Shown: in pieces, positions 9,371 to 50,171 of the stretch
Position numbering within the stretch: the stretch's first letter is position 1
Layout: each line of letters starts with the position of its first letter
Assembly: GCA_028877265.1 (NCBI GenBank)
Contig: JAPPGX010000191.1
Location: forward strand, 66,144-130,143
Length of the DNA stretch: 64,000 nt
Direction: 5' to 3'
Origin: Acidobacteriota bacterium
Lineage (GTDB): Bacteria; Acidobacteriota; Vicinamibacteria; Marinacidobacterales; Marinacidobacteraceae
Made by a program: the position numbers and the translations under genes
The notes under the pieces: model-generated
Databases searched by the model: none
What the model was told of the DNA's origin: nothing
The model's input: only the letters and a program-made list of their open reading frames with translations

Positions 9371-9572
9371 TGCTGTCGAATCGAACGGGCCAGTATACGG
9401 GCGACGAGTGTTTGCCGTAAGCCTCGTTTCGCCTCCGTCCCTGGATCATCGGTCTTCCACGTCCGGCCAAGACGCCACGCAGAACGCCTCGCAAAGGCGC
9501 AATTCGGCCGGGATCCATCTCCCGTCGGGCGCCGCCTGGGTTCTTGCCACGGGCTGCTAACGTCCACTCAAC

Positions 9573-14701: not shown

Positions 14702-14753
14702 ACGCCATGAGGCTGATCGATCGAGCGCACCTCCCGGGAGACCGGGACCGCTG

Positions 14754-15857
14754 ATGGCCGACACGGCCTCGCTGCTCGACAGTTGGGAGAGCGAGGTCCA
14801 GGCGGCCTGGCTCTACCTGGTGCTCGCGGAGATCGAGACCGGAGAGAACAAGCGCCTCTTCGAAGCGCTCTCGGCGGACGCGCTGGAACAGAGCAAGTCG
14901 TGGGTCAAGGCGATCGAGGACGCGGGTGGTTCGCCTCCCGGCCCCTACGAGGCGCCCTTCCGGGTGCGGCTCGTGGGCACGCTGATCCGGCGGATCGGCC
15001 CGCGCTCGCTGCTGCCCGCGCTCGCCGCGCTGAAGGTGCGCGGCCTCTCCGTCTACCGGGCGGCGCCGTCGAGCCTCGAGGTGCTCATCGCGCAGGAGGC
15101 CGGTTCGAGCGTCCGCGCGGAGTCCCGCGATCACCTGCTGGGCGAAGAGCAGCGCCACCTCTACACCCGCGGGGCGGTCGCGCTTCACGCCGCGATCTTC
15201 GGGGCGAACGACGGGCTGGTGTCGAACACGGCCCTCATCCTGGCCGCGACGGGCGCCGGCGCCTCTCCGGGCACGGCGCTCCTCATCGGCGCCGCCGGAA
15301 TGGTGGCGGGCGCCGTTTCGATGGCCACCGGGGAGTACCTCGGGGTGCGCTCGCGGATCGAACTCTACGAGCGGCAGATCGCGCTCGAGGAGGAGGAGTT
15401 GCGGCTCTACCCGGACGACGAGGCCGAGGAGCTGGCGATGATCTTCGAGGCGCGTGGTCTCGAGCGCGAGGCCGCCCGCGATCTCGGCAAGCGCCTGATC
15501 AGCGAGCCCGCCCGCGCGCTCGATGTGCTGACGCGCGAGGAACTCGGCCTGAATCCGGACGATCTGGGTTCGCCCTGGGCATCGGCGCTGGCCTCGCTGC
15601 TGAGCTTCGGCGGCGGAGCGCTGGTCCCGCTGCTTCCCCTCGCGCTCCTCCCGGCGCTCGGTCTGGGCAGCGGCCCCGCACTGCTCGGAGCGGTGGCCCT
15701 GAGCGGGGTGGCGCTTTTCGTGTCGGGGGCGGCGACGAGCCTGTTCACGGGCCGTTCCGGCATTCGCAGCGGCTTTCGACTGGCCTCCGTGGGGCTTGCG
15801 CTCTCGGGTGTCCTTTACGGTCTCGGGCTCGTCGTCGGGGCGAGCCTCGGCGGCTGA
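14754..15857 (+). CDS. mbfA: Membrane-bound ferritin-like iron exporter: N-terminal erythrin (rubrerythrin/ferritin-like) domain fused to a VIT1/CCC1 family transporter (MbfA-like)
   Basis: The N-terminal ferritin-like helices carry E-x-x-H-type pairs (EIETGENKRLFEALSADALEQSKSW ... EEQRHL). The VIT1 signature AIFGANDGLVSNTALILAATGAG is followed by Gly-rich TM helices. The RBS is GGGAG. Confidence 0.8.
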   Translation: MADTASLLDSWESEVQAAWLYLVLAEIETGENKRLFEALSADALEQSKSWVKAIEDAGGSPPGPYEAPFRVRLVGTLIRRIGPRSLLPALAALKVRGLSVYRAAPSSLEVLIAQEAGSSVRAESRDHLLGEEQRHLYTRGAVALHAAIFGANDGLVSNTALILAATGAGASPGTALLIGAAGMVAGAVSMATGEYLGVRSRIELYERQIALEEEELRLYPDDEAEELAMIFEARGLEREAARDLGKRLISEPARALDVLTREELGLNPDDLGSPWASALASLLSFGGGALVPLLPLALLPALGLGSGPALLGAVALSGVALFVSGAATSLFTGRSGIRSGFRLASVGLALSGVLYGLGLVVGASLGG

Positions 15858-35001: not shown

Positions 35002-36531
35002 GTGGGCTTGAGGAATCGCGTTCTCCTGGCGGCGATCCTTCTTGGCGGGGGATTTGTGTTTCCGGCGGCGGGCGGTTGCGCCCTGCGGTCGGGAGGTTCC
35101 CCCGACCTGGCGCAGGAGGCGGCCCCCGAACTGCCCTCCGACTTTGCCGAGAATCCAGCCAGCGGAGCCCGCCAGGCGCAGGAGTGGTGGCGGGCGTTCG
35201 CCGATCCCGCGCTCGACCACGTGGTCGAATCGGTACTGGACTCCAATTTCTCCGTGGCGGAAGCGGTAGCGCGGGTCGAGCAGGCCCGAACGCGGGCCCG
35301 GCTGGCCGACGCGGCGATCCTGCCCACGGTCGGAGCGAGCCTCACCGCGGAAACCTTCGACCTGCCCACGAACGCCGCGATCGGCGCCCAACTCGAGGAC
35401 CTCGGTCTCGATTTCCCGCTGCCCGACCGGCTGGGCTTCCCGACCTATACCCTGGGCGCGGACTTTGCCTACGAAGCGGATTTCTGGGGCCGCGTCCGGC
35501 ACACCGCACTCGCGGCGGGATCCGAACTGCTGGCCTCGGAGTTCGACCTGCGGGTCGCCCGCATCGGCATCCTCGCCGAGACGATCTCGGCCTACTTCGA
35601 AATCGGCCATCTCCGGCAACAACTCGCCATCGCTCGAGGGCACGTGGAACTGCTCGAGGAACGCGAGCGGCTGGTCGAGAGCCGCTACGAACGTGGGCTT
35701 GCCGTCTCGCTCGAACTGCACGGCGTGCGTCAGGCTCTCTCGAGCGCCCGGGCCGGCGTGCCGCAGGTCGAGAATCAACTCGCCGAGACCGAGTCGCGGC
35801 TCGCCGTGCTGCTGGGAGGCTACCGGGAGGATGTCGCGGCGATCCTTCCCGAATCCCTCTCCCCGGAATCTCCAGCCGAACCGGTGCCCGCAGGCATTCC
35901 GGCCGACCTCCTTTCGCAGCGCCCGGACGTGCAGGCCGCGGGTCACCGGCTGGAAGCCGCCGGACACACCGTCGAAGCCCGTCGGGCCGCGTTGATGCCG
36001 CAGCTTTCGCTCTCCGGATCCATTGGACTCCGGAGTACGGACGCCGGAGGCCTCTTCGACGTCAAGCAGTGGTTCACGAACCTCGCCGGCAACCTCCTTC
36101 GTCCGGTGTTCGACGGCGGCCGGCTCGCGAGCGGCGTGGAACTGGCCGAGGCCCGCTTCGACGAGTTGGCGGCGGCCTACGGCCGGACCATCGTTACCGC
36201 GGTCAACGAGGTGGAAGCGGCCCTGGCCACCCTCAGGAACGAAGGCCGGCGGCAGGAATCTCTCGCCGCGCAGCACGAGGAGGCCCGCGCCTCCGTCGAA
36301 GCTCAGTCCAGGCGCTATGAGGCGGGCATCAGCGGCTATGGCGATCTGCTCGATGCGAATGCCAGACTGCTGGATGCGGAATCGGCGCTCGCGGGTTCGG
36401 CGCGGAACCTGGCGCTCGCCCGCCTCGCCATCCACCGGGCTCTGGGGGGCGCCTGGACCGCCCCGGACGAGATGGCCAGCGCGCCGGCGAGCACGCCGGA
36501 TGCCCGCGCCAAAGGACCGGCCGACCGATGA
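35002..36531 (+). CDS. RND efflux system outer membrane factor lipoprotein (NodT/OprM family)
   Basis: Lipobox FPAAGGC. It has two tandem TolC-like repeats (SVAEAVARVEQARTRARLADAAILPTV..., coiled-coil segments, LALARLAIHRALGG). Confidence 0.85.
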   Translation: MGLRNRVLLAAILLGGGFVFPAAGGCALRSGGSPDLAQEAAPELPSDFAENPASGARQAQEWWRAFADPALDHVVESVLDSNFSVAEAVARVEQARTRARLADAAILPTVGASLTAETFDLPTNAAIGAQLEDLGLDFPLPDRLGFPTYTLGADFAYEADFWGRVRHTALAAGSELLASEFDLRVARIGILAETISAYFEIGHLRQQLAIARGHVELLEERERLVESRYERGLAVSLELHGVRQALSSARAGVPQVENQLAETESRLAVLLGGYREDVAAILPESLSPESPAEPVPAGIPADLLSQRPDVQAAGHRLEAAGHTVEARRAALMPQLSLSGSIGLRSTDAGGLFDVKQWFTNLAGNLLRPVFDGGRLASGVELAEARFDELAAAYGRTIVTAVNEVEAALATLRNEGRRQESLAAQHEEARASVEAQSRRYEAGISGYGDLLDANARLLDAESALAGSARNLALARLAIHRALGGAWTAPDEMASAPASTPDARAKGPADR

Positions 36532-37745
36532 ATCGAACGAAGGGATTCATCCTGGCGGCGATCATCCTGCTGGGATCGTTCGGGATCGCAACCCTGCTGA
36601 TCGCGCAGCGGCCGGAGCCCGAGCGGCGCGAACCTCCCTCCCGGATTCCGTTCGTCGTCACGGCGCCCGCGGTCGCGGGTTCGGGGCCGATCCCGGTCCA
36701 CGGCGCCGGGACGGTCCGGCCCCGCGTCCAGGTGGAGGTGGCCGCCGGGGTGAGTGGACGGGTCGTCCGGGTTGATCCGGGCTTCGAGAGCGGCGGCCGG
36801 GTCAGCGAGGGTCAGGCGCTCTTCCGCCTCGACGACGCCGACTACCGCTTCCGGGTGGAGCAGGCCCGTTCCGGCGTCGCCGTACAGCAGGTGGAACTGC
36901 TGAAGGTCGAGGAGGAAGCGCGGATCGCCCGCGAGCAGTACGAAGCGTTCCAGAGCCGCCGTGGCGCCGCCGGGGACGCGGAAGCGAGTCCCCTGGCGCA
37001 CTGGGAGCCGCAGCTCGAGGCGGCGCGGGCCGGTGTGGAACGGGCCCGCGCGCTCCTCGCGGAAGCCGAACTCCTGCTCGCGCGAACCGAAGTTCGGGCG
37101 CCCTTCGACGCCGTGGTGCGCTCCGAGAGCGTCGGGGTCGGACAGTTCGTGACCGCAGGGGTCGGCGTCGGCCGGATTTACGCCTCCGATGCGGTCGAGA
37201 TCGTCGTCCCGCTGTCCGACGCCGATGCGGCGCTCGTCCCGGGTCTGTGGGACCTGAGGCCGGGAGTCGCGGATCGTCGGGCGGCGGCCCGGGTCACCGC
37301 GGACTACGGGACCGGCGCCTATGCCTGGGACGGGTACGTGGACCGGGTCGAGGCCGCACTGGATGAAACGACGCGCACCCTCGATGTGATCGTGCGCGTT
37401 CCGAACCCCTTCACGGGTGGTTCCCGGGTGCAAGCGGGAGAAGCGAGCGCGGACGCCGGATCCGCGCCGCCGCTCCTGATCGGCCAGTTCGCGAACGTCG
37501 AGATATCGGGGATCGCGCCGGAGGAGTACTTCCGGATCCGGCGGCTGGGGCTCCGGCCGGGCAACGAGGTCTGGGCGGTGGACGGCGAGGCGGTGACCAT
37601 CGTTCCGGTCCGCGTGCTGCAGCGCTTCGACGACACCGTCTACGTCACCGGCGGGCTGCAGGAAGGCCAGGAGGTAGTCCTGAGTGGCATTCAGTTCGCG
37701 ACCGAGGGACTGAGGGTGCGGACCGCCGCGAACCCGGACCCTTGA
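36528..37745 (+). CDS. RND efflux periplasmic adaptor (membrane fusion protein, HlyD family)
   Basis: There is a 4-bp overlap with the OMF gene. It has an N-terminal TM anchor. The biotinyl/lipoyl-like hairpin is GVSGRVVRVDPGFESGGRVSEGQALFRLDDADYR. The coiled-coil is AVQQVELLKVEEEARIAREQYEAF. Confidence 0.85.
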   Translation: MNRTKGFILAAIILLGSFGIATLLIAQRPEPERREPPSRIPFVVTAPAVAGSGPIPVHGAGTVRPRVQVEVAAGVSGRVVRVDPGFESGGRVSEGQALFRLDDADYRFRVEQARSGVAVQQVELLKVEEEARIAREQYEAFQSRRGAAGDAEASPLAHWEPQLEAARAGVERARALLAEAELLLARTEVRAPFDAVVRSESVGVGQFVTAGVGVGRIYASDAVEIVVPLSDADAALVPGLWDLRPGVADRRAAARVTADYGTGAYAWDGYVDRVEAALDETTRTLDVIVRVPNPFTGGSRVQAGEASADAGSAPPLLIGQFANVEISGIAPEEYFRIRRLGLRPGNEVWAVDGEAVTIVPVRVLQRFDDTVYVTGGLQEGQEVVLSGIQFATEGLRVRTAANPDP

Positions 37746-37854
37746 ACCTGCGGGACGTTGTAAGGCCCGGAGCGCAGGTCGATCGCCCGCAGTCGGATCC
37801 GCCGGGGTGGGGCGGAGGAGGAAGGACCTTGGGCGAGAATGCCGGTCAGGACGC

Positions 37855-38850
37855 ATGAGTGAAGACGTGCTCTCCCCGTTCCCGGAGGGTTGGTATTTCG
37901 TTACCACCCGGGGATCACTGGAGAAGGCGAGGCTCATCCAGAAGACCTGGATGGGAAAGGACATCGTCGTCTGGTGCGACGACGCCGGCGGAATCTCCGT
38001 GGCCGAGTCGGTCTGTCCTCACCTGGGGTCCGAACTGGGCCCCGCCGCCGGCGGCCGAGTGCGGGATGGCCGTCTCGTGTGTCCTTTTCACGGCTACGAG
38101 TTCGACGTCAGCGGGCAATGCGTCGCCACGCCCTTCGCCCCGCCGCCGAAGACCGCGAGGCTGAGGTCGTTCGAGACTCGGGAGGTCCTGGGCATCGTCT
38201 TCGCCTGGTGGGGAATCGACGGACGGCCCCCGCAGTGGAGCCTTCCCGAGGACCCGCCGGCCGGCGCCGACTGGTGCGAACCGGCGTTCCGGACTCTCCG
38301 GTTTCGGGGGCACCCCCAGGAAACGAGCGAGAACGCCGTGGACATGGCGCACCTCCGGTACGTGCACGGCTACGGCAACGTCGGCCGGGTCGGCAAGGTA
38401 ACGGTGGACGGCGCGTATCTGCGGAGCTGCTTTGATTTCAAGCGCACCCAGCGCATCGCCGGAGCCATCAATCTCACCTTCGACGTCTCCGCCACCGCGC
38501 ATGTCGTCGGACTCGGATACTCGCTCGTGGAGTTCCACGAGCGCTCCATTGGAATGGACGGACGCCTCTGGGTCCTTGCGACGCCCGTCGACGGCACGCT
38601 CATCGACCTGGTGCTGGTCGGACAGTTGCGAAGAATCCGGAAACCGAAGCGGCTGATCGTCGGGTTGCGGTTCCTGCCGCCTGCTCTCCGTACCGGGACC
38701 ATGAACAAGCTGATGCTGTTCTTCCAAAGGCACGACGTCATGCAGGACGTGGAGATCTGGAGCCGGAAGCGGTACCGGTCGCGCCCGAGCCTCAGCCGGG
38801 CCGACGGCGAGATCGGGTTGTACCGGCGCTACTGCAGGCAGTTCTACTAG
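37855..38850 (+). CDS. Rieske [2Fe-2S] non-heme-iron oxygenase (KshA/SdmA/PAO-like ring- or sterol-hydroxylating oxygenase family)
   Basis: ATG at 37855. Rieske motif CPHLG...(19 aa)...CPFHGY. Mononuclear iron motif ENAVDMAHLRYVHG (D-x2-H-x4-H). It is about 330 aa. It is inserted between the MFP and RND pump genes. Confidence 0.8.
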   Translation: MSEDVLSPFPEGWYFVTTRGSLEKARLIQKTWMGKDIVVWCDDAGGISVAESVCPHLGSELGPAAGGRVRDGRLVCPFHGYEFDVSGQCVATPFAPPPKTARLRSFETREVLGIVFAWWGIDGRPPQWSLPEDPPAGADWCEPAFRTLRFRGHPQETSENAVDMAHLRYVHGYGNVGRVGKVTVDGAYLRSCFDFKRTQRIAGAINLTFDVSATAHVVGLGYSLVEFHERSIGMDGRLWVLATPVDGTLIDLVLVGQLRRIRKPKRLIVGLRFLPPALRTGTMNKLMLFFQRHDVMQDVEIWSRKRYRSRPSLSRADGEIGLYRRYCRQFY

Positions 38851-38872
38851 CGCGGCCAGGCGCCCGCCTGGC

Positions 38873-40252
38873 TCAGGCGCTCCGGAACCGCCAGCCGTAC
38901 ATCACCCGGCCGTAGAAGTTGAACCACTTTCTGGCCTCCGGGTCCTCGAACGGATAGTCCGCGCCGAGCTGTCTCGCCGTGACGAGGCCGGACACGAAAC
39001 AGGTCTCCTGGCTGTTGACCAGGGTGTGCGCGCCACAGTGCCAACTCCGCCGCTTTCCCTGGACGAAGCGAAACAACTGGGTCAGGAAGGCGACGTGAGG
39101 CACGTCGTGCACGATGTGCTGAAACCACCACCTCTTGACGATCCTGCTCTCGTCGATACGGCTGATCGGGTTGTAGGTCACGAGACACGGCTTGTCCGAC
39201 GTGTTCGCCCAGGGCTGCTGGTTGTGCATGATGTAGGTGATCTCGTAGTTGTCGGGCCGCGCGCCGTACTGCTCGATGTGGTTGCTCCGGGTGGCGAGCG
39301 GCCTGGCCTCGTTGTCGGGGAGGACCGAGGCGTCCGAATGCACGACCGTGTGGTTGTGCAGTTCGCTTTCGTACCGGATCGAGGAGAGGAGCCAACCCTC
39401 CAGCCGCGTCGGCCTGTCGAGGAGCATCAGCGTCTGGTTCGCGTTGCACGCGAAGACGACTTCGTCGAAGGTTTCGGTCCTTCCGTCCTCGTCCTCCACG
39501 ACAACCTCGTTACGGCGCCGGTGGACCCTTCGCACCGGCCGGTTCAGATAGATCTTCTCGCGAAAGGCTGCGGACAGATCCCGGTAGATCCGCCGGGTGC
39601 CCTGATCCCAGGTCTGCATCGGCGTCGCGGTCTCGATGTCGAAGAAGTCCAGGTACCGCGAAAAGAGCGACGCCGGCATGTCGAACACGTTCGTCGCCAT
39701 CAGGAAGTTGACGAACATGGGCTTCAGGACCTTGTACCGGAAGTCCCCCGAGTACCTTCCCAGGTTCAGCAGCGCTCCCATGCTGACGTAGTTGAACGGG
39801 TTAAGGGAGCTGAGCAGCTTCGACCTCGAGACGTTGAGCCGGCCGAACCACTTCAGACGTCTCAGGAGACGCTGGAACTTCTGGATTTCCGGTTGCAGTT
39901 GCCTCCTGATGTCGGAGTCGAAGTCGTGGGCATAGATTCCGCCTCGATACTTCACGCTGTAGTTGAACCGCGTTTCGAGCAGCTCGATGCCGTGCTGTTG
40001 CATGAGCAGGACGAAGTGGTGGTATGCCGACGGTATGCACGCGGTGACCGAGATATCGAACGGCACCGTGCTGCCGTCGTCCTGCGGCATGTCCGCAGTG
40101 ATCGCATTGCCGCCGAGCTGCGCCTGCGCTTCGAAGAGCCGAAAATCGAAACGGTCCCGGTGGCGGTTGAGCGCCCACGCCGTCCCGAGCCCCGAGGCGC
40201 CCCCACCGACAATGGCAACCCTTCTCGGCGCGCCGCCCTTCGCTTCACCCAC
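38873..40252 (-). CDS. FAD/NAD(P)-binding amine-oxidase-like oxidoreductase (COG2907-type)
   Basis: The Rossmann motif RRVAIVGGGASGLGTAWAL is followed by FEAQAQLGGNA. The C-terminal flavin-contact block WHCGAHTLVNSQETCFVSGLVTARQLG matches the W-x-C-G-A-x-T...QE...SG pattern of the family that classically pairs with CMAS-type methyltransferases. Confidence 0.75.
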   Translation of the reverse strand: MGEAKGGAPRRVAIVGGGASGLGTAWALNRHRDRFDFRLFEAQAQLGGNAITADMPQDDGSTVPFDISVTACIPSAYHHFVLLMQQHGIELLETRFNYSVKYRGGIYAHDFDSDIRRQLQPEIQKFQRLLRRLKWFGRLNVSRSKLLSSLNPFNYVSMGALLNLGRYSGDFRYKVLKPMFVNFLMATNVFDMPASLFSRYLDFFDIETATPMQTWDQGTRRIYRDLSAAFREKIYLNRPVRRVHRRRNEVVVEDEDGRTETFDEVVFACNANQTLMLLDRPTRLEGWLLSSIRYESELHNHTVVHSDASVLPDNEARPLATRSNHIEQYGARPDNYEITYIMHNQQPWANTSDKPCLVTYNPISRIDESRIVKRWWFQHIVHDVPHVAFLTQLFRFVQGKRRSWHCGAHTLVNSQETCFVSGLVTARQLGADYPFEDPEARKWFNFYGRVMYGWRFRSA

Positions 40253-40431
40253 ATTCCTACTCTACCTTTGGGGTGCGGCCGCCCCGTCCGCTCGCCGCCG
40301 CCGCAGTAGGCGGTCCGGGGACCCTGCCGACCCCTTGCCCGCCCGCTCCATCGACTAGACTCTGACCCGGACCATCCAGTGGCGGCGGATCGGTGGGGCT
40401 GTCGAGCCGCCTCGGCTGGAGGTTGAGCACC

Positions 40432-42450
40432 ATGAGCGAGGGCACCCGGTTTCCGATCCGAATCGCCGAGGAGTTGATCCTCCTCATGCTGGACGAGCAG
40501 AGCGGCTACCTCGAGATGGTTCCGAACTGGGACTTCTCCTGTGTCATGGCCGGGGCCGTGCTCGCCGACCTGGCCCTGGAGCGTCGCATCGAGACCGACC
40601 TGGAGCGGTTGTACCTGGTCGATCCCTCACCGACCGGAGATGAGTTGCTCGACCCGACGCTCAAGGACATCGCCGAATCCGACGAAAAATCGGACGCCCA
40701 GTTCTGGATCGAACGGAACACCCGCCAAGCCGACGAAATCGTCGCAGCCGCCCTCGAGCGCCTGGTGGAGCGGAACATCCTTACCCACGAGAGCGGCGGA
40801 TTCTGGGGGCTCTCGCGCTCTGTCGCCCGTTCAGGGACTTTTCCGACCCAGGCTGTCGCGACCCGCCGGGAATCCAAGGTGAGGGTCCTGAGCGTCATCC
40901 TGAACGACGAGATCCCGGACCCGCGGGACGCCATCCTGGTCGCGCTGATGCACACCTGCGGCGGCTTCAAGCTGCTGCTGGAGGAAGAGGACTACGAAGA
41001 GCGGCTCGCCCGCATCGAACTCGTCGCCAAGCTGGACCTCATCGGACGGACGGTCGCCGCCGCCGTGAAGGACAGCACGGCGAGGCCCAAGACCCGTCGC
41101 GTCGTTCAGACGAAGCCCATTCCCAAGCCTGGGTATCTCGTACTGCTACAGCGCGACTTCCTCTCCGGCAACATCTCGAAGGCGATGTACGGCATGTATC
41201 GAAAACACGGGCCGGTCGTCAGGATGCCCTTCAAGATCCGCGGCAAGCCCGTCGTTTCGTTGATGGGTGCCGATGTCAATCACTGGGTCAATCGGCACGG
41301 ACGGTTCTATCTCCGCTCGAAGGACTACATCGAAGGGCTGGAGCACGCGTTTGGCGCATCCCGGAGTCTCCCCGGAATGGATGGCGCCGAACACTATCGA
41401 ATGCGCAGGGAACTCCAGACTGCGTATTCCCGCGCCACGCTCGCGCAGCGGCTGCCGGAGCTGATCGACGACTGCCGGAAATCGCTGAGCCGTTGGAAGG
41501 AAGGGGATGTCTTCCGCGCCACCGAGAGCTTTCAGAACCACATCAGCAGTCAGATCTCCAATTTCGCGATGGGAGTGGATTGCAGCCACTATGTCGACGA
41601 ACTGTTGGCCTTTGAACACCGTGCACTGATAACGCGGGTCCAGGGCGCATTGCCGGATTTCATGCTGTCCACCCCAAGAATGAAACGGTATGGGAAGCGT
41701 GTCAGGGAACTCCAGGAGGCGATCACCGCGGGACACACGACGGCGCTGCGCAAGGGAAAGCCCCGGGATCTGGCCGACGCGATTCTCGATCTCCACAAGA
41801 GGGACCCGCAGTTCCTTCCCGAAACGGACCTCACCTTTCCCTTCGTGGCTTCCATGGTTGCGAGCATCTATCTCGGCAGCGGACTGGCCTTCACTGTTTA
41901 CAACATGGTTCGAAACCCGGACGTGTACGCGAGGGTCCGGAGCGAGGCCGAGTCGCTGTTCGGCAACGGTCGTGAACTTGCGGGAGATGACTTCAATCAC
42001 CAGAGCATCGACGTCACGGTGCGTCTCTGCATGGAATCCTCGCGTATGTACCCGGTGATTCCATGGCAGTTGAGAACGGTCATGAACGAGTGCATCGTCA
42101 GTGGTTACGAGATACCGCCGAAGACGATGTTGCTGATTTGCCAGACTGCGCCGCACTATGCCGAGGATCTGTACCGGGATCCGTTGAAGTTCGATATCGA
42201 TCGGTACTTGCCGGACCGGGCCGAGCATCTGCAACCGGGCGCCTATGCGCCCTACGGCCTGGGTACGCACATGTGCCTCGGCCACCGGTGGGTGGAACTT
42301 CAGATGGCCGTCAACGTCCTGCTCATCGCGCATCACCTGCAGCTCGAAGTGGTGCCCGGCAACTACAAGATGGGAATCAATCCGTTCCCGACCTTGGCCC
42401 CCAACAGGAAGCTGAAGTTCCGCGTCGCCGGGGTCCCGCGTCCCGTGTGA
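40432..42450 (+). CDS. Fusion protein: N-terminal GPP34/GOLPH3-like lipid-binding domain (about 220 aa) plus C-terminal cytochrome P450
   Basis: ATG at 40432 is preceded by GGAGG (the track's 40393 start is GTG). GPP34 blocks: IAEELILLMLDEQSGYL, SCVMAGAVLADLAL, LLDPTLKDIAESDEKSDAQFWIERN, DPRDAILVALMHTCGGFKLL. P450 blocks: ExxR ESSRMYP, PERF-like FDIDRY, heme loop YGLGTHMCLG. The I-helix region (YLGSGLAFTV) lacks the usual acid-alcohol pair. Confidence 0.8.
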   Translation: MSEGTRFPIRIAEELILLMLDEQSGYLEMVPNWDFSCVMAGAVLADLALERRIETDLERLYLVDPSPTGDELLDPTLKDIAESDEKSDAQFWIERNTRQADEIVAAALERLVERNILTHESGGFWGLSRSVARSGTFPTQAVATRRESKVRVLSVILNDEIPDPRDAILVALMHTCGGFKLLLEEEDYEERLARIELVAKLDLIGRTVAAAVKDSTARPKTRRVVQTKPIPKPGYLVLLQRDFLSGNISKAMYGMYRKHGPVVRMPFKIRGKPVVSLMGADVNHWVNRHGRFYLRSKDYIEGLEHAFGASRSLPGMDGAEHYRMRRELQTAYSRATLAQRLPELIDDCRKSLSRWKEGDVFRATESFQNHISSQISNFAMGVDCSHYVDELLAFEHRALITRVQGALPDFMLSTPRMKRYGKRVRELQEAITAGHTTALRKGKPRDLADAILDLHKRDPQFLPETDLTFPFVASMVASIYLGSGLAFTVYNMVRNPDVYARVRSEAESLFGNGRELAGDDFNHQSIDVTVRLCMESSRMYPVIPWQLRTVMNECIVSGYEIPPKTMLLICQTAPHYAEDLYRDPLKFDIDRYLPDRAEHLQPGAYAPYGLGTHMCLGHRWVELQMAVNVLLIAHHLQLEVVPGNYKMGINPFPTLAPNRKLKFRVAGVPRPV

Positions 42451-42517: not shown

Positions 42518-45500
42518 ATGAGTTCCGATCCAGGCAACCACGCGGAACCCCGTGGACCGATCGCCTACATGGCGAGCAACGGCGTGGCGTCCAACTTGCT
42601 GATGTTCGGCATCCTCGCGGTGGGCCTCGTGTCGCTGACCGGCCTCGAGCAGCAAGCGTGGCCCACGGTGCCTTTCAACCAGTTCGAGATCTCGGTGCCG
42701 TTCCCGGGCGCAACGCCCCAAGAGGTGGAGGAGGCCATCGTCGTCAAGATCGAGGATGAGGTCAGGGGATTGGCGGAGGTGAAGACGGTCCGGTCCGTAG
42801 CGGCCCCGGGAATGGCGTCCGTCAGGGTCGAAGTCAACTCCGGTACGGACATGGGCGCGAAGAGGGACGAAATCGAGTCGGCGGTCGCGCGGATTCAGAC
42901 CTTCCCGGGTGGGGCCGAGCGGCCCCAGATCCGTGAAATGACGAACGCCCAGAGCATGATGCGTCTCGTCCTCTACGGCGACGTTCCAGAGCGCTCGCTG
43001 AAGGAGCTCGCCCACCGGATCGAAGACGATCTCGCGTCGCTCCCGAACGTGTCCCTGGTCGAGACCAGCGGGGTGCGCAACTACGAGATCTCGATCGAAG
43101 TGCCGCTCGAGCGGCTGCGGGCCCTTGGGCTCACGCTGACCGACATCGCCAACACGGTTCGCCGCGGTTCCCTGGACCTGTCGGCGGGCAGCATCGATAC
43201 CGCGCAATCCCGGGTGCGGATTCGGACCCTCGGCCAGAGCTACGACCAGCAGGACTTCGAGGACATCGTCGTCCTCGGCCGCGCCGACGGCACGGTGGTG
43301 CGCCTGGGTGAGATTGCCGAGGTGCGCGACGGCTTCCACGACTCAGGTTTGCTGGTGCGGTACCAGGGCGAGCCAGCCGTGTTCGTCGAGGTTTCGCGAG
43401 CCGATGGCGAGAGGGTGATGGACGTGGCGCGCGCCGTTCGGGAACACGTCGCGAACGAGATAGCGCCCTCGCTCCCGGACGGCATGGGCATCGACATCTG
43501 GAACGACGACTCTTCGGTCTTCTCGGAACGTGCCCTCCTTCTCCTCAAGAATGGAGCCTTGGGGCTGTTGCTGGTCCTGATCGCGCTGGGTCTGTTTCTC
43601 CAGCTTCGGCTGGCGTTCTGGGTCGCCGTCGGCCTCGGCGTTTCCGCGATCGGCGCCCTGGCCGCCATGATGGTGTTCGACATCCCGCTCCACGAGATTT
43701 CGCTCTTCGCCTTCGTGCTCGCCATCGGCATCGTCGTGGACGATGCGATCGTCGTGTCGGAGCACATCCACGAGGAACGAAAGCGCGGCACGCCGGGACT
43801 CGCGGCGGCGATCCGGGGCGCGCGACGCATCAAGGTGCCGCTGGTCTTCGCGGTGCTGACGACCATCGTGGCGTTCCTTCCGCTGCTCTTCATACCCGCG
43901 GGGTTCGGAGAGGTGTGGAAGGCACTGCCGATCGTCGCTATTGCCACGCTGCTCTTTTCGCTGGTCGAATCGCTCCTGGTGCTGCCCAATCATCTGTCCC
44001 ATCATCTGCACGGCCCGGATTGGGCGCCCCGGACGGGCATGGAGCGGTTCGTCGCCCGGATCCAGAATCGGGTCGATTCCTGGTTGAACCGCTTCATCCA
44101 GGGACCCGTGGACCGCGGGATCCAGTTGGCGACGGACTGGCCCGGGGTGACGGTTTCGGCGGCCGTTGCGCTGCTCGTCCTGAGCATTTCCCTTCTTCCG
44201 GCCGGCATCGTTCCCACCACCTTCGCGACGAAGGTCGAAGGCGACTTCGCGATCGCCACCCTTGAGATGCCGGAAGGAACGACCGCGCCGCAAACGTACG
44301 CCGTGGCGCAACACCTGGAATCGGCCGGCCGCCGGGCCGTCGAGCGGCTCTCCCAAAGCCGGCCCGCTGACGCGCCTCCCCTCTTGTCCGGAGTTACGGT
44401 CGTCGTCGGCCAGCGGTCGCGGCTCGAAACCGGAGGCCTCAATCCCTCGCCCACTTTGAACCCGGAAGCCAATGTCGCGACCATCGAGTTCAAGCTCCTG
44501 AGCGCCCAGCTGCGGAGCATCACTTCGGGAGACGTCGTGCAGGCATGGCGCGAGGAGGTGGGTGTCCTGCCTCAGGTACGCGCGGTCACCTTCATCAGCG
44601 AGATCTACACATTGGGCAACCCCGTCGAGGCGGCGCTGTCCCACCCGGATCCGGAACGCCTCAACGAGATCGCGAATTCCACCGTCGCCGGCCTCGGCAG
44701 GGTCGGAGGCGTCTTCGACATACGCTCGGATCACACTCCCGGGATCCCGGAAGTCCAGGTGGGACTACTTCCCGAAGCGCGCACCCTGGGCCTCACGCTG
44801 GATGATCTTGCCCGGCAGACGCGAGCGGCCTTCTTCGGTGAGGAGGCCGTGCGGGTGCAGCGGGGACGTGACGAAGTTCGGGTCTACGTCCGGTTACCCG
44901 AGGAGCAACGGAACGCGATCACCGACGTCGAGAGTTACCGGCTCCGGACGCCAACTGGCGCCGACGTGCCGGTCAGCCGCGTGGCTTCGCTGAGTTCGGG
45001 CACCTCGCCGCCGGCCATCCGGCGCCAGGACGGCCAGCGGATTGTGACCGTTACCGCGGATGTCGATCCGAGTGTGACTTCCGCCGCGACCGCCAACGAC
45101 ATTCTGGAGAACACCATCCTGGCGGGGCTCATCGCGGAGAACCCGGAACTGACCTATACCTTCGGAGGGGAACAGCAACAACAGCTCGACTCCCTGGGCG
45201 GTCTCTATCGCGGATTCGTGATCGCGCTGCTCCTGATCTTCGCGCTGCTGGCCATTCCCCTGCGCTCCTACACGAAACCGTTCATTGTCATGGCCATCAT
45301 CCCGTTCGGGTTCGTCGGGGTGATCCTGGGTCACTGGATGCTGGGGGTCGCCGTGAGCGCGGAGTCCTTCGTCGGGATCTTCGGGTTGGCCGGCGTGGTC
45401 GTCAACGACTCCCTGGTGATGATCGATTTCACCGACCAGAAGCTCCGGGACGGCATCCCGGTGCGAACCGCGATCATCGAGGGCGCGAAGGGACGCTTCC

Positions 45501-45721
45501 GCCCGATCATGCTGACTTCCCTGACGACCTTCCTGGGTTTCACCCCCCTGATTCTCGAGGACGCGATTCAGGCGCAGTTCTTTGTTCCCTTCTCCGCCTC
45601 GATCGGTTGCGGCATTCTCTTCACCACGGTGATCATCATGTTTCTGGTGCCCGCGCTTTCCTCGATCCACCTGCGCCTTGGCTCGGCCCGGCAACAACTG
45701 GCCGCCGAGGGTTCCGGTTGA
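42518..45721 (+). CDS. RND efflux transporter permease (AcrB/HAE1-like, 12 TM, about 1067 aa)
   Basis: It has an N-terminal TM followed by the large periplasmic loop (PFPGATPQEVEEAIVVKIEDEVRGLAEVKTVRS). Conserved TM4-like block: AFVLAIGIVVDDAIVVSEHI. Its second half is a repeat of the first. Confidence 0.9.
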   Translation: MSSDPGNHAEPRGPIAYMASNGVASNLLMFGILAVGLVSLTGLEQQAWPTVPFNQFEISVPFPGATPQEVEEAIVVKIEDEVRGLAEVKTVRSVAAPGMASVRVEVNSGTDMGAKRDEIESAVARIQTFPGGAERPQIREMTNAQSMMRLVLYGDVPERSLKELAHRIEDDLASLPNVSLVETSGVRNYEISIEVPLERLRALGLTLTDIANTVRRGSLDLSAGSIDTAQSRVRIRTLGQSYDQQDFEDIVVLGRADGTVVRLGEIAEVRDGFHDSGLLVRYQGEPAVFVEVSRADGERVMDVARAVREHVANEIAPSLPDGMGIDIWNDDSSVFSERALLLLKNGALGLLLVLIALGLFLQLRLAFWVAVGLGVSAIGALAAMMVFDIPLHEISLFAFVLAIGIVVDDAIVVSEHIHEERKRGTPGLAAAIRGARRIKVPLVFAVLTTIVAFLPLLFIPAGFGEVWKALPIVAIATLLFSLVESLLVLPNHLSHHLHGPDWAPRTGMERFVARIQNRVDSWLNRFIQGPVDRGIQLATDWPGVTVSAAVALLVLSISLLPAGIVPTTFATKVEGDFAIATLEMPEGTTAPQTYAVAQHLESAGRRAVERLSQSRPADAPPLLSGVTVVVGQRSRLETGGLNPSPTLNPEANVATIEFKLLSAQLRSITSGDVVQAWREEVGVLPQVRAVTFISEIYTLGNPVEAALSHPDPERLNEIANSTVAGLGRVGGVFDIRSDHTPGIPEVQVGLLPEARTLGLTLDDLARQTRAAFFGEEAVRVQRGRDEVRVYVRLPEEQRNAITDVESYRLRTPTGADVPVSRVASLSSGTSPPAIRRQDGQRIVTVTADVDPSVTSAATANDILENTILAGLIAENPELTYTFGGEQQQQLDSLGGLYRGFVIALLLIFALLAIPLRSYTKPFIVMAIIPFGFVGVILGHWMLGVAVSAESFVGIFGLAGVVVNDSLVMIDFTDQKLRDGIPVRTAIIEGAKGRFRPIMLTSLTTFLGFTPLILEDAIQAQFFVPFSASIGCGILFTTVIIMFLVPALSSIHLRLGSARQQLAAEGSG

Positions 45722-45758: not shown

Positions 45759-46814
45759 CTAGCCCGAAAGGGGCCGGCGCGCCACGAAACAGTAGAGCGG
45801 GGTGAAGATCCCCGTCTTGCCCCCCGCGACGTAAGCGTCCGCGGTCCGGTCCAGGAGAGCCACCACCTCCGCCGAGCCCCTCGGGAACGCACCGAAGAAC
45901 TCGGCCAGCCGGACTCCCCACCGCAGCGCCTTGCGGCCCATCGGAATCCGGCGGAACGCGCTGCCGGGCAACCCGCGGAGGGTTTCCATGGGCTGATACC
46001 ACGGCGTGTCCTGACGGTGCCCGTCGGCGGCGAGGTCCTCACCCTCCAGGACTTCGAATCCTGCGGTTGCGAGCGCCCGGTTGACCTCCCCGAACGTCGC
46101 AATGTCCTTGAGCGCGATGCCGTGCATGAGCTCCTGCTTGATGGCGCGGTGCCGGTCGTCCCCCGGGTCGTACAGGTCCGTCATGCACATTTCCTGGCCC
46201 CAGAAGAGGGCTCCAGGTTTCAGCACTCGGTAGATCTCGGCGAACGCGCCCGCCTTGTCGTCCGCGTGGCAGGTTGATTCGATCGCGTAGCCGCGGTCGA
46301 AGGTCCGGTCCGCGATCGCGCTCATGTCCATGAAGCTGCACTGGAGACAGTCGGTCTGGCCGGCGAGCCCCGCGGCCTCGTTCAAGCGCCTTGCGTTGTT
46401 GCACTGGACTTCGCTGGCGTTGATTCCGACAACGCGGACTCCAACCTCCCTCGCCACGCGGCGCATCGGACCGCCGATCCCGCATCCGACATCCACGACG
46501 GTCATGCCCGGACGCAGTTCGAGCCTGGACATCATGAGTCTCTGGTGCCGGATCTTGGAGTCCTCCAGGCTTTCGCCGGGCGACAGCGGCGCAAAGTGCA
46601 GGGACTCTCCCCAACCCATGACCATGAACTCGGTGCAAAGGTCGTAGTACTCCTTGACGGTCCGCGTGTGGTCGTACCCCCCGTCGGCATCCCCCCGGGG
46701 GGATGCCCTGTCGGTCCATCCTTCGAAGTCCCGCACGCGGTTCGTGACGTTTGATCCGCCGAACGCAGTTCTCAACCCATCGGATAGCCCACGGATTTGT
46801 CCGGTGAACTTCAC
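45759..46814 (-). CDS. Sterol 24-C-methyltransferase (Erg6/SMT) homolog, SAM-dependent
   Basis: GTG start at 46814. It shows block-by-block similarity to yeast Erg6 as recalled from memory. [21 protein letters not shown] matches [37 protein letters not shown] matches [25 protein letters not shown] matches [21 protein letters not shown] matches [28 protein letters not shown] matches [27 protein letters not shown] matches [32 protein letters not shown] matches LVAGGKSKLFTPMMLFVARKP. Confidence 0.8.
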   Translation of the reverse strand: [351 protein letters not shown]

Positions 46815-47144
46815 GGCGTGTTCTGGCCCGGTTCCGGCTCTCGCAGGCCACCCGGACGTGCGAAACCGGTTCTTCGCACCGGGGGCCGTTGAAGACGGGG
46901 CCCCGCGGGTCGCGGTTCCGCCAGCGGTCGCGGGGACGCACGGCGGATAGCCGCCACGTCAGCCGGCACCCGGACTTCCCTCCCCCCCAAGACAGTGGAT
47001 AGTCTAGTGGAGGCGTTGCGGACCCCGGGAGCACGCCGAAGGAGATGGACGGATGCGCAGGAAACGCCAACTCTCGCTGTTTCCGGCCGTATCCGGGGTG
47101 CTCTCTGGACGCCCGGACCACCGCCGCGAAGGAGCCGCTGCCGG

Positions 47145-48851
47145 TTGGTGACGTTTCGCTATCTCCTTGTTGCGGGCCTCCTCGGGTTCGCCGGTTGTGC
47201 GCCGGGGCCGGCGGAAACCCGTTTCGAGGTTTCCTTCCCGGCGGAGCTTCACGAAGGACCGATCACCGGCAGGGCCTACGTGGTCATCGGGACCGAGCCG
47301 GACATCGCGGCGATCCGGCAGCGGAGCCTCGGTCACCAGCCGGTGTCCGCCGCGCGCGGCGTCCCGTTCTTCGCGGTGGACGTCGAGGGGCTGGCGTCCG
47401 GCCAACCCGCGGTGATCGACGGTTCCACCCTGGGATACCCGGTTGAGCGCCTCGCCGAACTCCCCGCCGGGGACTACTACGTGCAGGCGCTCCTCGTCCC
47501 GTACACCGAGTTTCACCGCGCCGACGGGCACGTGATCTGGGCCCACCGGGACGAGTGGGAAGGGCAGCACTTCAACTGGGCCCCCGGCACCCTGCTCAGC
47601 GACGCGGAGAGAGTCCGGCTCGATCCGGCGAGCGGCTTCTCCTTCCGCCTGCGCCTCGTCGAGGAACTTCCCGAGATCGAGGTGCCGCCCGACGACATGT
47701 GGGTGCGGCGGGTGAAATTCGAGAGCCCGATGCTCAGCGAGTTCTGGGGCCAACCGGTCTATCTCGGAGCCACCGTGCTGCTTCCGGAGGGATACGACTC
47801 GCATCCGGACACCTGGTACCCAACGGTGTATCAGCAGGGCCATTTCAGCCTCGACCCGCCGTTCGGGTTTTCGGCGGACCCGGTGGAGGAATCGGCAGCC
47901 GCCCGCGCCGCAAGGCTCGAACGCGGGGTCGAGAACGGTTTCGAGTTCTTCGAGTCCTGGCGGTCTCCAGGCTTCCCGCGGATGGTCGCGGTCACCTTCC
48001 AGCACCCGACCCCTTATTTCGACGACTCCTACGCGGTGAATTCGGCCAACAACGGCCCCTACCAGGACGCCCTCATGACCGAGTTGATCCCTTACCTCGA
48101 GGAGCGGTTCCGGATGATCCCGGAGGGGTGGGCGCGCCTGCTCACCGGCGGATCCACCGGCGGATACGAAGCGCTCGCCCTCCAGGCGCACCGGCCGACC
48201 GACTTCGGGGGCGCCTGGGTCTTCTATCCGGATCCCATCGACTTCCGGCGGTTCTTCCTGATCAACATCTACGAGGACGAGAACGCGTTTCGCGCGCCCG
48301 GCTGGAGTGACGGGCAACTCGCTCCCGAGCGCTACGCGTTCCGCGACGATGACGGCCAGCCGCTGCAGAGCATCCGCGAGCTGAGTCGACTGGCGTCCGT
48401 CCTCGGCAGCCGCGGGAGGTCGACCGACTATCTGGAAGCTTGGGAAGCGTCCTTCGGGCCCGTCGGCGAGGACGGCTACCCCCGTCCTCTCTGGGACAAG
48501 CGGACCGGTGTCATCGACCGCGAGGTGGCGCGCTACTGGCGGGAGAACGGCTACGACCTCCGCCACTACCTCGAGACGAACTGGGGAGAGATCGGCCCCG
48601 ACCTGGTGGGCAAACTCCACTTCATCTGCGGGGACATGGACAACTACTACTTCAACCACCCGGTCTATCTCATCGAGGAATTCCTGGAGGCCACCGAGAG
48701 CCCCCACTACGGCGGTTCGTTCCGCTACGGGCGGCCCAACAAGGGACACGGCTGGACGCCGATCACGAACGCGGAGCTGTTCCGGGAAATGGCGGCGCAC
48801 CTGACGCGGAACGCGCCGCCGGGCGCCGACACCCGCGGGTGGAAGTACTGA
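47145..48851 (+). CDS. Putative esterase-family alpha/beta hydrolase lipoprotein (enterochelin-esterase/esterase-D-like)
   Basis: TTG/GTG start at 47145-47148 is preceded by GGAG. Lipobox LLGFAGCA. The serine-hydrolase nucleophile elbow LLTGGSTGGYEAL lies within an alpha/beta region. It has an N-terminal beta-sandwich region. Confidence 0.55.
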   Translation: MVTFRYLLVAGLLGFAGCAPGPAETRFEVSFPAELHEGPITGRAYVVIGTEPDIAAIRQRSLGHQPVSAARGVPFFAVDVEGLASGQPAVIDGSTLGYPVERLAELPAGDYYVQALLVPYTEFHRADGHVIWAHRDEWEGQHFNWAPGTLLSDAERVRLDPASGFSFRLRLVEELPEIEVPPDDMWVRRVKFESPMLSEFWGQPVYLGATVLLPEGYDSHPDTWYPTVYQQGHFSLDPPFGFSADPVEESAAARAARLERGVENGFEFFESWRSPGFPRMVAVTFQHPTPYFDDSYAVNSANNGPYQDALMTELIPYLEERFRMIPEGWARLLTGGSTGGYEALALQAHRPTDFGGAWVFYPDPIDFRRFFLINIYEDENAFRAPGWSDGQLAPERYAFRDDDGQPLQSIRELSRLASVLGSRGRSTDYLEAWEASFGPVGEDGYPRPLWDKRTGVIDREVARYWRENGYDLRHYLETNWGEIGPDLVGKLHFICGDMDNYYFNHPVYLIEEFLEATESPHYGGSFRYGRPNKGHGWTPITNAELFREMAAHLTRNAPPGADTRGWKY

Positions 48852-48911: not shown

Positions 48912-50171
48912 ATGCGTGAGGCCGGACCGGACCGGGCCTTCCGGCGGTTGCGGCTGCTCCTGGCGGCGCTCCTCTTCGTCGGCTACGCGGGCTACTACCT
49001 CGGCCGGGTCACGGTTCCGGTGGCGCTGCCCCTCATCGGCGAAGCCTTCGGTTACTCGAACACCGAGGTCGGCCTGATCCTCTCCGTGTATTTCGCGGTG
49101 TACGCCGCCTCGAAACTCGTGAACGGTTTCCTGGGCGACCGGATCGGCGGCAAGGCGATGTTCTTCATCGGACTGTTCGGGTCCGTCCTGATGAATGCGG
49201 CCTTCGGTTTCGGCCGGGAGCTCTTCCTTTTCGTCGCGATCTGGGGGGTCAACGCCTATTTCCAGACGATGGGCTGGCTCGCCGTCATGCCGATCATGGC
49301 CCGCTGGTACCCGAGCCGCGAGAGCGGCCGCGTGATGGGCTTCATGTCGATCAGCTATCAACTCGGCGACTTCCTCGCCCGGGCCTCGGCCGCGGTGCTG
49401 ATCGTGGCGCTCGGATGGTCGGGACTCTTCTGGGCGCACGCCGTCCTGCTCGCCCTGTTCGGCCTGGCGCTCTTCCGTCTCATCAGACCCGAGCCGCCGT
49501 CGGCAACCTATCCGGCCGGGCTGCGGGAGGCGCAGCCGGAGCCGGCGGCTCCGGGAGCCGAACGGAGCCGATCGCGCCACCGGATGCTCACGAGTCCGGC
49601 CTTCTGGATCCTGTGCACGAGCTACGTCCTCCTTTCCGTCGTCCGTTACAGCTTCTGGGGCTGGTCCGTGGACTATCTGGTCCAGGCCGGTGCCGGGATC
49701 GGCGCGGCGGCCGCGACGTCCGCCCTCTTCCCGCTGCTCGGCTCGGCCGGATCGATCACCGCGGGGTGGGTCTCGGACCGGCTGGGTGCTCGCCGGGGGC
49801 CGGTGCTCGCCGTCATGTGCGCGGTGCTGACCCTTTCCATCTACGTCTTCAGCCGCCTGCCGGTCGCGGAGGGGCCCTGGCTCGCGGCCGCCCTTGGGCT
49901 CGTGGGCTTCACGCTCTACGGCCCGTATTCGCTGATGTCGGGGGCCATGGTCATGGACTTCGGGGGGACGGAGGCCTCGGCCTCCGCTTCGGGCATCGTG
50001 GACGGGATCGGGGCGGCCGGGGCCGTCTTCGCGGGAGTCGGGATGGGGTACCTGATCGATGCCTATGGCTGGGACGGCGCGTTTGGCATCATCGTGGCGA
50101 TGGCTTCGGTCGCGACCGTCCTGAACGCTCTGCTCTGGAGCCATAGGCCGCTGCGCGCGGAGCGCGGCTGA
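48912..50171 (+). CDS. MFS transporter (organophosphate:phosphate / oxalate:formate antiporter-like)
   Basis: 12 predicted TM helices. The MFS motif is GFLGDRIGGK and the loop motif is MARWYPSRESGRVMG. It has two 6-TM halves. Confidence 0.75.
   Translation: MREAGPDRAFRRLRLLLAALLFVGYAGYYLGRVTVPVALPLIGEAFGYSNTEVGLILSVYFAVYAASKLVNGFLGDRIGGKAMFFIGLFGSVLMNAAFGFGRELFLFVAIWGVNAYFQTMGWLAVMPIMARWYPSRESGRVMGFMSISYQLGDFLARASAAVLIVALGWSGLFWAHAVLLALFGLALFRLIRPEPPSATYPAGLREAQPEPAAPGAERSRSRHRMLTSPAFWILCTSYVLLSVVRYSFWGWSVDYLVQAGAGIGAAAATSALFPLLGSAGSITAGWVSDRLGARRGPVLAVMCAVLTLSIYVFSRLPVAEGPWLAAALGLVGFTLYGPYSLMSGAMVMDFGGTEASASASGIVDGIGAAGAVFAGVGMGYLIDAYGWDGAFGIIVAMASVATVLNALLWSHRPLRAERG

Follow-up and report, generated by a model that had tools for sequence, protein, structure and literature searches.

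A 64-kb stretch of DNA from an Acidobacteriota (Vicinamibacteria-like) bacterium, obtained from a metagenome that we take to be sponge-derived and referred to here as the window, carries between positions 35002 and 46814 a group of genes that probably constitutes an island for the tailoring and trafficking of sterols, assembled from interchangeable parts. At its center lie a gene for a Rieske non-heme-iron mono-oxygenase of the KshA class (37855-38850, + strand; 331 amino acids) and, on the opposite strand, a gene for an FAD-containing flavoprotein that belongs to the LkcE/COG2907 branch of the amine-oxidase fold (38873-40252, - strand; 459 amino acids). The toolkit would also include a fusion of a GPP34 domain with a cytochrome P450 (GPP34-P450), a homologue of sterol C-24 methyltransferase (SMT) and a dedicated tripartite RND pump. 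The proposal is carried by the identities of these genes, the intact cofactor ligands and the folds of their products and, across phyla, their co-location with bona fide sterol genes.

Results

Gene Identification

Because the G+C content of the window is high (about 68%), genes were chosen by their third-position G+C content (GC3) and then checked with Pfam and NCBIfam. For both the Rieske and the flavoprotein genes, the GC3 frames, the Pfam matches and the gene calls in the European Nucleotide Archive (ENA; scaffold ROBB21-1_SAMN13943213_METAG-scaffold_1041) were concordant, which bears out the first-pass annotation of the two products as a Rieske protein and an FAD protein of the amine-oxidase fold. 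From its name, we take this scaffold to come from a demosponge metagenome.

Co-location with Sterol Genes

A scan of one genome per species of GTDB with the flavoprotein returned at least 574 related stretches. The best-scoring 80 were analyzed as loci, in which genes within a radius of 10 kb were labeled by tblastn with reference proteins whose own identities had first been verified in Pfam and NCBIfam. Bona fide sterol genes, i.e., those for SMT, fusions of squalene epoxidase with oxidosqualene cyclase (SE::OSC), CYP51, ERG24-like proteins, SdmA and SdmB, lay within this distance of the flavoprotein gene in 35 of the 80 loci. GPP34-P450 and/or KshA-like Rieske genes did so in 41, and genes of either class in 49. 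The first-pass annotation had proposed that a lipid-modifying flavoenzyme works alongside a methyltransferase related to CMAS; an SMT gene did occur within 10 kb in 32 loci, but it was the immediate neighbor in only one. With gaps of less than 600 bp, the commonest neighbor was the GPP34-P450 gene (26 loci), followed by genes for the Rieske protein (16), a small TPR protein (15) and SdmB (6).

The neighborhoods fell into recurring patterns. In Acidobacteriota and Rhodothermales (pattern A), the arrangement was as in the window, with an RND pump of the HAE1 type. In Gammaproteobacteria (pattern B), the flavoprotein gene was divergent from a complete operon for de novo sterol synthesis. About eight loci resembled L076, in which the operon encodes SdmB, SdmA (403 bits to the SdmA model), an ERG24-like protein, CYP51 (346 bits to the top solved CYP51, 7jj1), SE::OSC and SMT. 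In Thermodesulfobacteriota, Dadabacteria and Spirochaetia (pattern C), a GPP34-P450 gene was followed by the flavoprotein gene, accompanied by genes for SMT, a second reductase of the ERG4/24 type, an HAE3/MMPL transporter and LolA-like and DUF1302-like proteins. A 21-kb locus from Nitrospirales (L017; OZ241988.1) unites patterns A and B in a single stretch, with genes for SE::OSC, CYP51, ERG24, SdmA, SdmB, SMT, the flavoprotein, a KshA-like Rieske protein, a second SMT and GPP34-P450. For reconstruction of the pathway, no other single locus would serve as well as a template. The conserved co-location with sterol genes is exemplified by L017, L076, L086 and L090, and even the most divergent member of the flavoprotein clade (P0241, 62% identity) lies among genes for SE, OSC, SdmA/B, ERG2-like and ERG4/24 proteins.

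Bacterial sterol gene clusters containing SdmA and SdmB were reportedly described by Lee in 2018. Clusters of the same kind, from sponge-associated bacteria, hold the flavoprotein gene (L076, L017 and L086), although the Rieske protein of the window is not itself SdmA. SMTs from sponge-symbiont metagenomes are active and methylate C-24, and their genes occur in clusters with sdmAB and OSC (Brown et al., 2023; PMC10070321); the main text and the accessible supplementary files of that study do not mention a Rieske protein, a P450 or an FAD oxidoreductase.

Two features of these neighborhoods are recorded in their own right. Squalene epoxidase (FAD_binding_3) fused to oxidosqualene cyclase (SQHop_cyclase N and C) in a single open reading frame (ORF) of 1127-1206 amino acids was found in gammaproteobacterial and Nitrospirales sterol operons, examples being L076 (1547-4930, - strand) and L054 (27-3647, - strand). 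In L022, L042 and similar loci of Dadabacteria and Thermodesulfobacteriota, HAE3/MMPL, LolA-like, DUF1302-like and 263-residue TPR proteins recur beside the flavoprotein, GPP34-P450, SMT and ERG4/24 genes; the HAE3/MMPL-LolA-like set possibly represents another kind of system for sterol transport, similarity to the BstA model amounting to 30 bits only.

The Rieske Protein

The Rieske protein matched the Rieske and KshA_C (PF19298; 87 bits) domains of Pfam. Its cluster ligands, CPH...CPFH (38014-38091), follow the CXH...CXXH pattern and were invariant in an alignment of 22 homologues, while the iron site is represented by an E-x3-D-x2-H-x4-H motif (DMAHLRYVH) and by the Asp of a C-terminal QDVEIW, which aligns with Asp304 of KshA. 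The oxygenase component of 3-ketosteroid 9-alpha-hydroxylase, i.e., KshA, was the best solved relative by sequence (E = 4e-24), with aromatic-ring dioxygenases scoring far lower. The top six Foldseek matches to an AlphaFold (AF2) model of the protein (pLDDT 79) were also KshA (TM 0.76-0.80), followed by SxtT/GxtA and dicamba mono-oxygenase. Grouping with aromatic-compound dioxygenases had been named beforehand as one half of an outcome that would speak against a role in lipid modification; by both sequence and fold, the protein grouped instead with the steroid-type enzyme.

There are nevertheless differences from KshA. The window protein is shorter (331 versus about 390 residues) and 22-24% identical, and it lacks both a KshB partner (no FNR or Fer2 protein is encoded in the 64 kb) and catabolic neighbors, being accompanied by genes for SMT, GPP34-P450 and the pump. 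We predict that it acts on a sterol, as an enzyme of the KshA/Neverland type; hydroxylation like that by KshA and desaturation of the Neverland type are equally conceivable as its reaction. SdmA was considered as an identity and rejected. The NCBIfam model (NF052579), which has a cutoff of 600 bits, gave a match of 37 bits confined to the Rieske domain, and identity to the genuine SdmA homologue of L076 was 27%, restricted to the N-terminal domain.

Metagenomes were rich in homologues of this Rieske protein at 66-98% identity. Two of them (n = 2) were examined independently of the flavoprotein. In L090, the gene is part of a Rieske-SMT-GPP34-P450 operon adjoining RND-MFP-OEP genes; in L091, it lies beside MFP-OEP, GPP34-P450 and RND genes; and neither locus has a flavoprotein gene nearby. 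Both neighborhoods connect this family of Rieske proteins with the pump and with methylation of sterol side chains.

These data also bear on the possibility, which we regard as improbable, that the island degrades host sterols for carbon, with the KshA-like enzyme and a dehydrogenase opening the nucleus in the manner of KshA and KstD. Such a function would agree with KshA standing nearest to the Rieske protein among solved structures, with the presence of outer-membrane receptor and transporter genes near the island, and with the richness of sponges in sterols. However, the module accompanies genes for biosynthesis and tailoring (SMT, OSC, CYP51, SdmAB and ERG24), and no steroid catabolic genes of the Hsa or beta-oxidation type were seen in the window or the annotated loci. 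Nor did the flavoprotein match Pfam FAD_binding_2, presumably the family of KstD.

GPP34-P450, SMT and the RND Pump

The flavoprotein gene is separated by a divergent spacer from a P450 gene, as the first-pass annotation had noted; read directly from the sequence, the spacer (40253-40431) is 179 bp long rather than 140 bp, and the P450 (40432-42450, + strand; 672 amino acids) is a GPP34-P450 fusion (Pfam GPP34 at residues 24-226 of the long ORF, plus p450). Its architecture is exactly that of GPP34_L, which was reported to be exclusive to sponge symbionts and was proposed to aid evasion of phagocytosis via binding of phosphatidylinositol 4-phosphate (PMC11706023, 2025, Microbiome). Rare GPP34-Rieske fusions were noted in the same paper, in which the word "sterol" does not occur. 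Whereas the published role is modulation of the phagosome, the gene is here embedded among sterol genes, and GPP34-P450 was present among sterol genes in the window and in 40 of the 80 related loci. The best solved relatives of the P450 were CYP46A1 (77 bits) and then CYP170A1 and CYP51 (68 bits); it is not CYP51 itself, given the 346 bits obtained with the genuine CYP51 of L076.

Upstream of the Rieske gene lie those for the outer-membrane factor of the pump (NodT/OEP; 35002-36531, + strand; Pfam OEP, E = 3e-44; NCBIfam outer_NodT, 285 bits, cutoff 210) and its periplasmic adaptor (MFP; 36528-37745, + strand; Pfam HlyD_3; NCBIfam RND_mfp, 152 bits, cutoff 95). The inner-membrane permease (HAE1, AcrB-type; 42518-45721, + strand; Pfam ACR_tran, E = 5e-153; start at about 42569 in the ENA call) follows the P450 gene, and the island ends with the SMT gene (45759-46814, - strand; Pfam CMAS plus Sterol_MT_C, 59 bits). 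The pump context of the Rieske and flavoprotein genes, which lie between OEP/MFP and the RND permease, had already been recognized, and correctly so, but the view that they had been inserted into a generic efflux operon is not supported. In Acidobacteriota and Rhodothermales, the module is flanked by permease genes orthologous to that of the window (66-98% identity); OEP orthologues adjoin it in other Acidobacteriota loci and in L090 and L091; and in both of the latter an ACR_tran permease flanks the Rieske and GPP34-P450 genes. Because the module is repeatedly accompanied by a pump, either an HAE1 orthologue or, in other phyla, an HAE3 system, we consider it a dedicated component rather than an unrelated efflux operon that has been interrupted.

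Distribution and Transfer of the Flavoprotein Clade

The flavoproteins of the best 80 loci were 78-95% identical to that of the window and came from about 12 phyla or classes, i.e., Acidobacteriota, Alpha- and Gammaproteobacteria, Rhodothermales, Nitrospirales, Nitrospinota, Dadabacteria, Thermodesulfobacteriota, Spirochaetia, Chloroflexi, Binatia and Acidimicrobiales. A word-indexed search returned exclusively matches with at least 80% identity, labeled as coming from several phyla. Chromosome-level assemblies were common among the genomes bearing the gene, and names pointing to sponges were frequent (TsSOB "lac_sponge", Candidatus Porisulfidus, and SB06xx/RHO/COS/APA bins). In an exhaustive search of representatives clustered at 50% identity, there was a single full-length match at 62% (P0241), after which identity dropped to about 37% and then to 28-34%, so the clade is an isolated one.

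The median pairwise identity was 83.7% within a phylum or class versus 81.9% between them, some cross-phylum pairs reached 98%, and 180 columns of the alignment were invariant. Neighboring genes in the same loci were far more diverged, GPP34-P450 in most other phyla being 38-47%, SMT 39-68% and the Rieske protein 58-72% identical to their counterparts in the window. Identity of around 80% across a dozen phyla implies that the gene is under unusually strong constraint and is clearly mobile. The GC3 of the flavoprotein gene correlated with the G+C content of its flanks (r = 0.76), so the composition of most copies suits their genomes, and the conservation points to strong purifying selection in addition to horizontal spread.

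Two of five annotated lone copies, i.e., flavoprotein genes without the partners described above, adjoin mobility genes, which suggests transfer on mobile elements. L015 has a DDE transposase gene together with a tape-measure gene (13464-14927, - strand, and 6291-8339, + strand, are listed), and in L055 a gene for a TrwC relaxase (5808-9635, - strand) flanks the flavoprotein gene. We also observed, in the gammaproteobacterial locus L038, a gene for an oxidoreductase of the GMC family (8332-9852, + strand), a family that includes cholesterol oxidase, directly upstream of a lone flavoprotein gene.

Host manipulation is an account of the island to which we attach as low a probability as to the degradation of host sterols. 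The GPP34 domain would then act on phosphoinositides or phagosomes, and the flavoprotein and Rieske protein on a host molecule other than a sterol. It would fit with the reported restriction of GPP34-P450 to sponge symbionts and its proposed modulation of phagocytosis (PMC11706023), and with the occurrence of the flavoprotein clade in genomes with sponge-related names. Also in keeping with it would be the horizontal spread of the clade, as judged from the transposase and relaxase genes and the near-equal identity between and within taxa. Against this, no N-terminal signal peptide was seen, by inspection only, in the translations of either the flavoprotein or the Rieske gene, and co-location with SMT and a complete sterol pathway makes a sterol the simpler assignment of substrate. 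Host manipulation and sterol tailoring are in any case compatible, in that a modified sterol could itself be the signal directed at the host.

Fold and Relatives of the Flavoprotein

The flavoprotein matched Amino_oxidase and NAD_binding_8 in Pfam and has a GGGASG dinucleotide motif; both Pfam and its AlphaFold model (pLDDT 91, pTM 0.92) indicate one FAD domain and one substrate domain, a two-domain architecture like that of LkcE. The latter, the amide oxidase/Mannich cyclase of lankacidin synthesis (PDB 6F32), was the closest solved structure (TM 0.86-0.90, rmsd about 2.5 angstroms, 24-25% identity, sequence E = 6e-27). Monoamine oxidases, nicotine oxidase, protoporphyrinogen oxidase and the Propionibacterium acnes fatty-acid isomerase (PAI) gave weaker fold matches (TM about 0.59-0.67). 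Grouping with polyamine oxidases was the other half of the outcome named beforehand as adverse to a lipid-modifying role; polyamine and putrescine oxidases matched the sequence at E = 0.08 or worse and in the N-terminal motif only. HpnE and protoporphyrinogen oxidase were set aside as identities, since their matches were limited to the N-terminal FAD motif. LkcE-type function was also rejected. Glu64 and Arg326, which are essential and strictly conserved in LkcE-type cyclases (PMC6162330), are replaced by Thr and Tyr, so the flavoprotein is not a cyclase of this type, and unlike LkcE it has no polyketide synthase (PKS) context.

In a tblastn search of plasmids, homologues about 29% identical over 92% of the length of the flavoprotein were found in operons with genes for a ChrR anti-sigma-E factor and DUF1365. 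These operons share the architecture of the Rhodobacter RSP1091-1087 operon, and it is from this architecture, rather than from the RSP1091 sequence, that we deduced the relation of the plasmid genes to UfaD. We equate UfaD with COG2907, and we take the name "predicted NAD/FAD-binding protein", given by IMG to relatives at 31-34% identity, to be the label of the same family. The earlier designation of the flavoprotein as COG2907-type would then hold at the level of the superfamily only. The accompanying statement that COG2907 lacks an established function is out of date: UfaD, i.e., RSP1091 of the ChrR-controlled RSP1091-1087 operon, is an FAD-dependent fatty-acyl desaturase, its substrate being the methyl-branched product formed by UfaM, a methylase of the CMAS type (PMC7380195).

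The parallel with UfaD, which functions in furan fatty-acid synthesis, extends to an FAD enzyme, a hydrophobic substrate, near-full-length alignment with the UfaD-type operon genes, and a CMAS-related methyltransferase in the same pathway (UfaM there, SMT here). The flavoprotein differs in forming a separate, tight clade with sterol-gene neighbors, without the DUF1365/UfaO partner or the ChrR-sigmaE regulator. Its nearest outgroup, a 37% relative on a Logan contig (L087; SRR13378648, 89-5043), lies in an operon with genes for a squalene/phytoene synthase, a CrtI-like desaturase and a polyprenyl synthase, and an Archangium relative lies in a fatty-acyl-AMP-ligase/ACP cluster. The relatives are thus all found in lipid or isoprenoid contexts. 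An analogy with BfaA (10-methylene reductase) was dropped, because its family is not stated in the papers concerned. There is a precedent for recruitment of a non-canonical flavoprotein to a bacterial sterol step in the C-24 reductase of Myxococcota, although this enzyme belongs to another flavoprotein family, GGR (Lee and Welander, 2025; PMC12004948).

UfaD and LkcE being its only characterized relatives, the flavoprotein might act on fatty-acyl chains or on a polyketide amide, its sterol neighborhood being coincidental. We give this little credence, in view of the replacement of both essential LkcE residues, of the mere 24-29% identity to UfaD-type and LkcE relatives, and of the lack of genes for DUF1365/UfaO, CFA synthase or methylase, ChrR-sigmaE or PKS beside the clade members examined and among the conserved neighbors in the 80 loci.

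Electron Supply

Rieske oxygenases and P450s require electrons, and the first-pass annotation had remarked on the lack of a ferredoxin or reductase gene nearby. This proved true of the whole 64-kb window, in which Pfam searches of all GC3-supported ORFs and a Cys-motif scan of ORFs of at least 50 amino acids revealed no ferredoxin, FNR-type or KshB-type gene. Likewise, a ferredoxin-type Cys motif occurred in a plausible ORF in none of the 80 loci, the matches there and in the window being out-of-frame, Arg-rich noise only. Since these loci hold SdmA, CYP51 and other P450s without a ferredoxin motif, it appears to be the norm for the redox partners to be encoded elsewhere.

The flavoprotein had been suggested as the redox partner. 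We found in it no second dinucleotide-binding or NAD(P)H domain, no Fe-S domain and no Cys cluster motif (Pfam, model and motif scan). It has only FAD Rossmann and amine-oxidase domains, and not the NAD(P)H-binding domain, with or without a [2Fe-2S] domain, of ferredoxin or Rieske reductases of the KshB, FNR or glutathione-reductase types. This architecture, the absence of a Rieske gene from 61 of the 80 loci, and the existence of Rieske/P450 operons without a flavoprotein gene (L090 and L091) all argue that it is not an electron carrier, and the simplest account is that it is a catalytic member of the toolkit. That it nonetheless serves as an NAD(P)H-dependent reductase of the Rieske oxygenase, the P450 or both is the least probable of the explanations considered. 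In favor of such a role, it is the sole other redox protein of the island, every sterol cluster with the flavoprotein also holds at least one electron-requiring oxygenase (P450 or Rieske), and its very high conservation could suit docking with several partners, but its LkcE/monoamine oxidase-like fold lacks the second dinucleotide-binding or [2Fe-2S] modules of known Rieske reductases, and 29 loci hold its gene with no oxygenase nearby.

Gene Order and Flanking Genes

The Rieske and flavoprotein genes are convergent, with 22 bp between their stop codons. The P450 gene starts at an ATG at 40432, with GGAGG 9 nt upstream. A scan of 37600-40600 for consensus sigma-70 promoters found no promoter-like sites. 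The same region has four terminator-like sites, all within coding regions, a number that does not clearly exceed the mean for shuffled sequence (1.8, sd 1.5).

Downstream of the SMT gene are genes for a protein with an esterase domain (46995-48851, + strand; 618 amino acids as the longest ORF, 568 in the ENA call) and an MFS transporter (48912-50171, + strand). Synteny of the MFS gene extends to four close relatives among the Acidobacteriota, and that of the esterase gene to one. At the other end of the window, a gene for a DUF2177 membrane protein (979-1446, - strand) has a counterpart adjoining the ChrR-sigmaE/UfaD-like operon of an Aminobacter plasmid (L082), which may well be coincidence.

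Discussion

If the island is a sterol-tailoring and trafficking system, as we think probable, its parts can be assigned provisional roles. The flavoprotein would most likely carry out FAD-dependent dehydrogenation (desaturation) of a C-C bond of a sterol, which we favor because of the analogy with UfaD and the isoprenoid context of its nearest outgroup; isomerization, in which it would resemble PAI or CrtISO, and saturation are the alternatives. The Rieske enzyme would hydroxylate or desaturate a sterol. Both it and the P450 would receive electrons from housekeeping ferredoxins and reductases whose genes lie elsewhere, an arrangement on which SdmA and CYP51 in these clusters evidently also depend. 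The RND pump plausibly carries the sterol substrate or product across the envelope.

Several points weigh against this interpretation. The reaction of the flavoprotein clade would be assigned from its neighborhood and from distant homology (29% identity to UfaD-type genes and 24-25% to LkcE). The window has no OSC, CYP51 or SdmAB gene, so the bacterium may act on sponge sterols, or its core pathway may be encoded elsewhere. Lone flavoprotein copies with none of the partners within 10 kb (pattern D) make up 29 of the 80 loci, and the substrate could therefore be another compound common to sponges. The loci are the best-scoring 80 of at least 574, so the frequencies given here apply to these 80 and no further. 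For most of the records, a sponge origin was deduced from their names and from PMC11706023 rather than from sample metadata, and the count of ferredoxins in the loci came from a motif scan rather than a domain search.

A bolder version of the sterol-tailoring proposal is that the flavoprotein clade represents a previously unrecognized sterol enzyme, a desaturase or isomerase of C-C bonds in the side chain or ring, which has spread horizontally through the sponge microbiome and which, with GPP34-P450, the KshA-like oxygenase, SMT and pumps, remodels sterols of the host or of the bacterium's own making. In this specific form, we regard the proposal as unlikely, though less so than the rival explanations considered above. 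Our literature searches found no paper describing the flavoprotein clade, or linking either the flavoprotein or GPP34-P450 to sterols. The co-location described here suggests that a COG2907/LkcE-like flavoenzyme and a KshA-like oxygenase have been recruited into bacterial sterol clusters.

Evidence for early animals is drawn from sponge sterols and their fossil steranes. The diagnostic sterol side chains can be built by SMTs of symbionts (Brown et al., 2023; PMC10070321), and to this picture of symbiont sterols the island adds three uncharacterized enzymes and dedicated transporters. It also provides a concrete and testable link, not made in PMC11706023, between the sponge-symbiont-specific GPP34-P450 and sterol metabolism. 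The flavoprotein is well suited as a candidate to fill a gap in bacterial sterol chemistry, and its gene might serve as a marker for a sponge-symbiont way of life. If it does prove to be a novel sterol enzyme, the GPP34_L symbiosis factor would be an enzyme of a sterol pathway rather than an effector of the phagosome, and bacteria would account in part for the unusual sterols of sponges and for the 24-alkyl sterane biomarker record.

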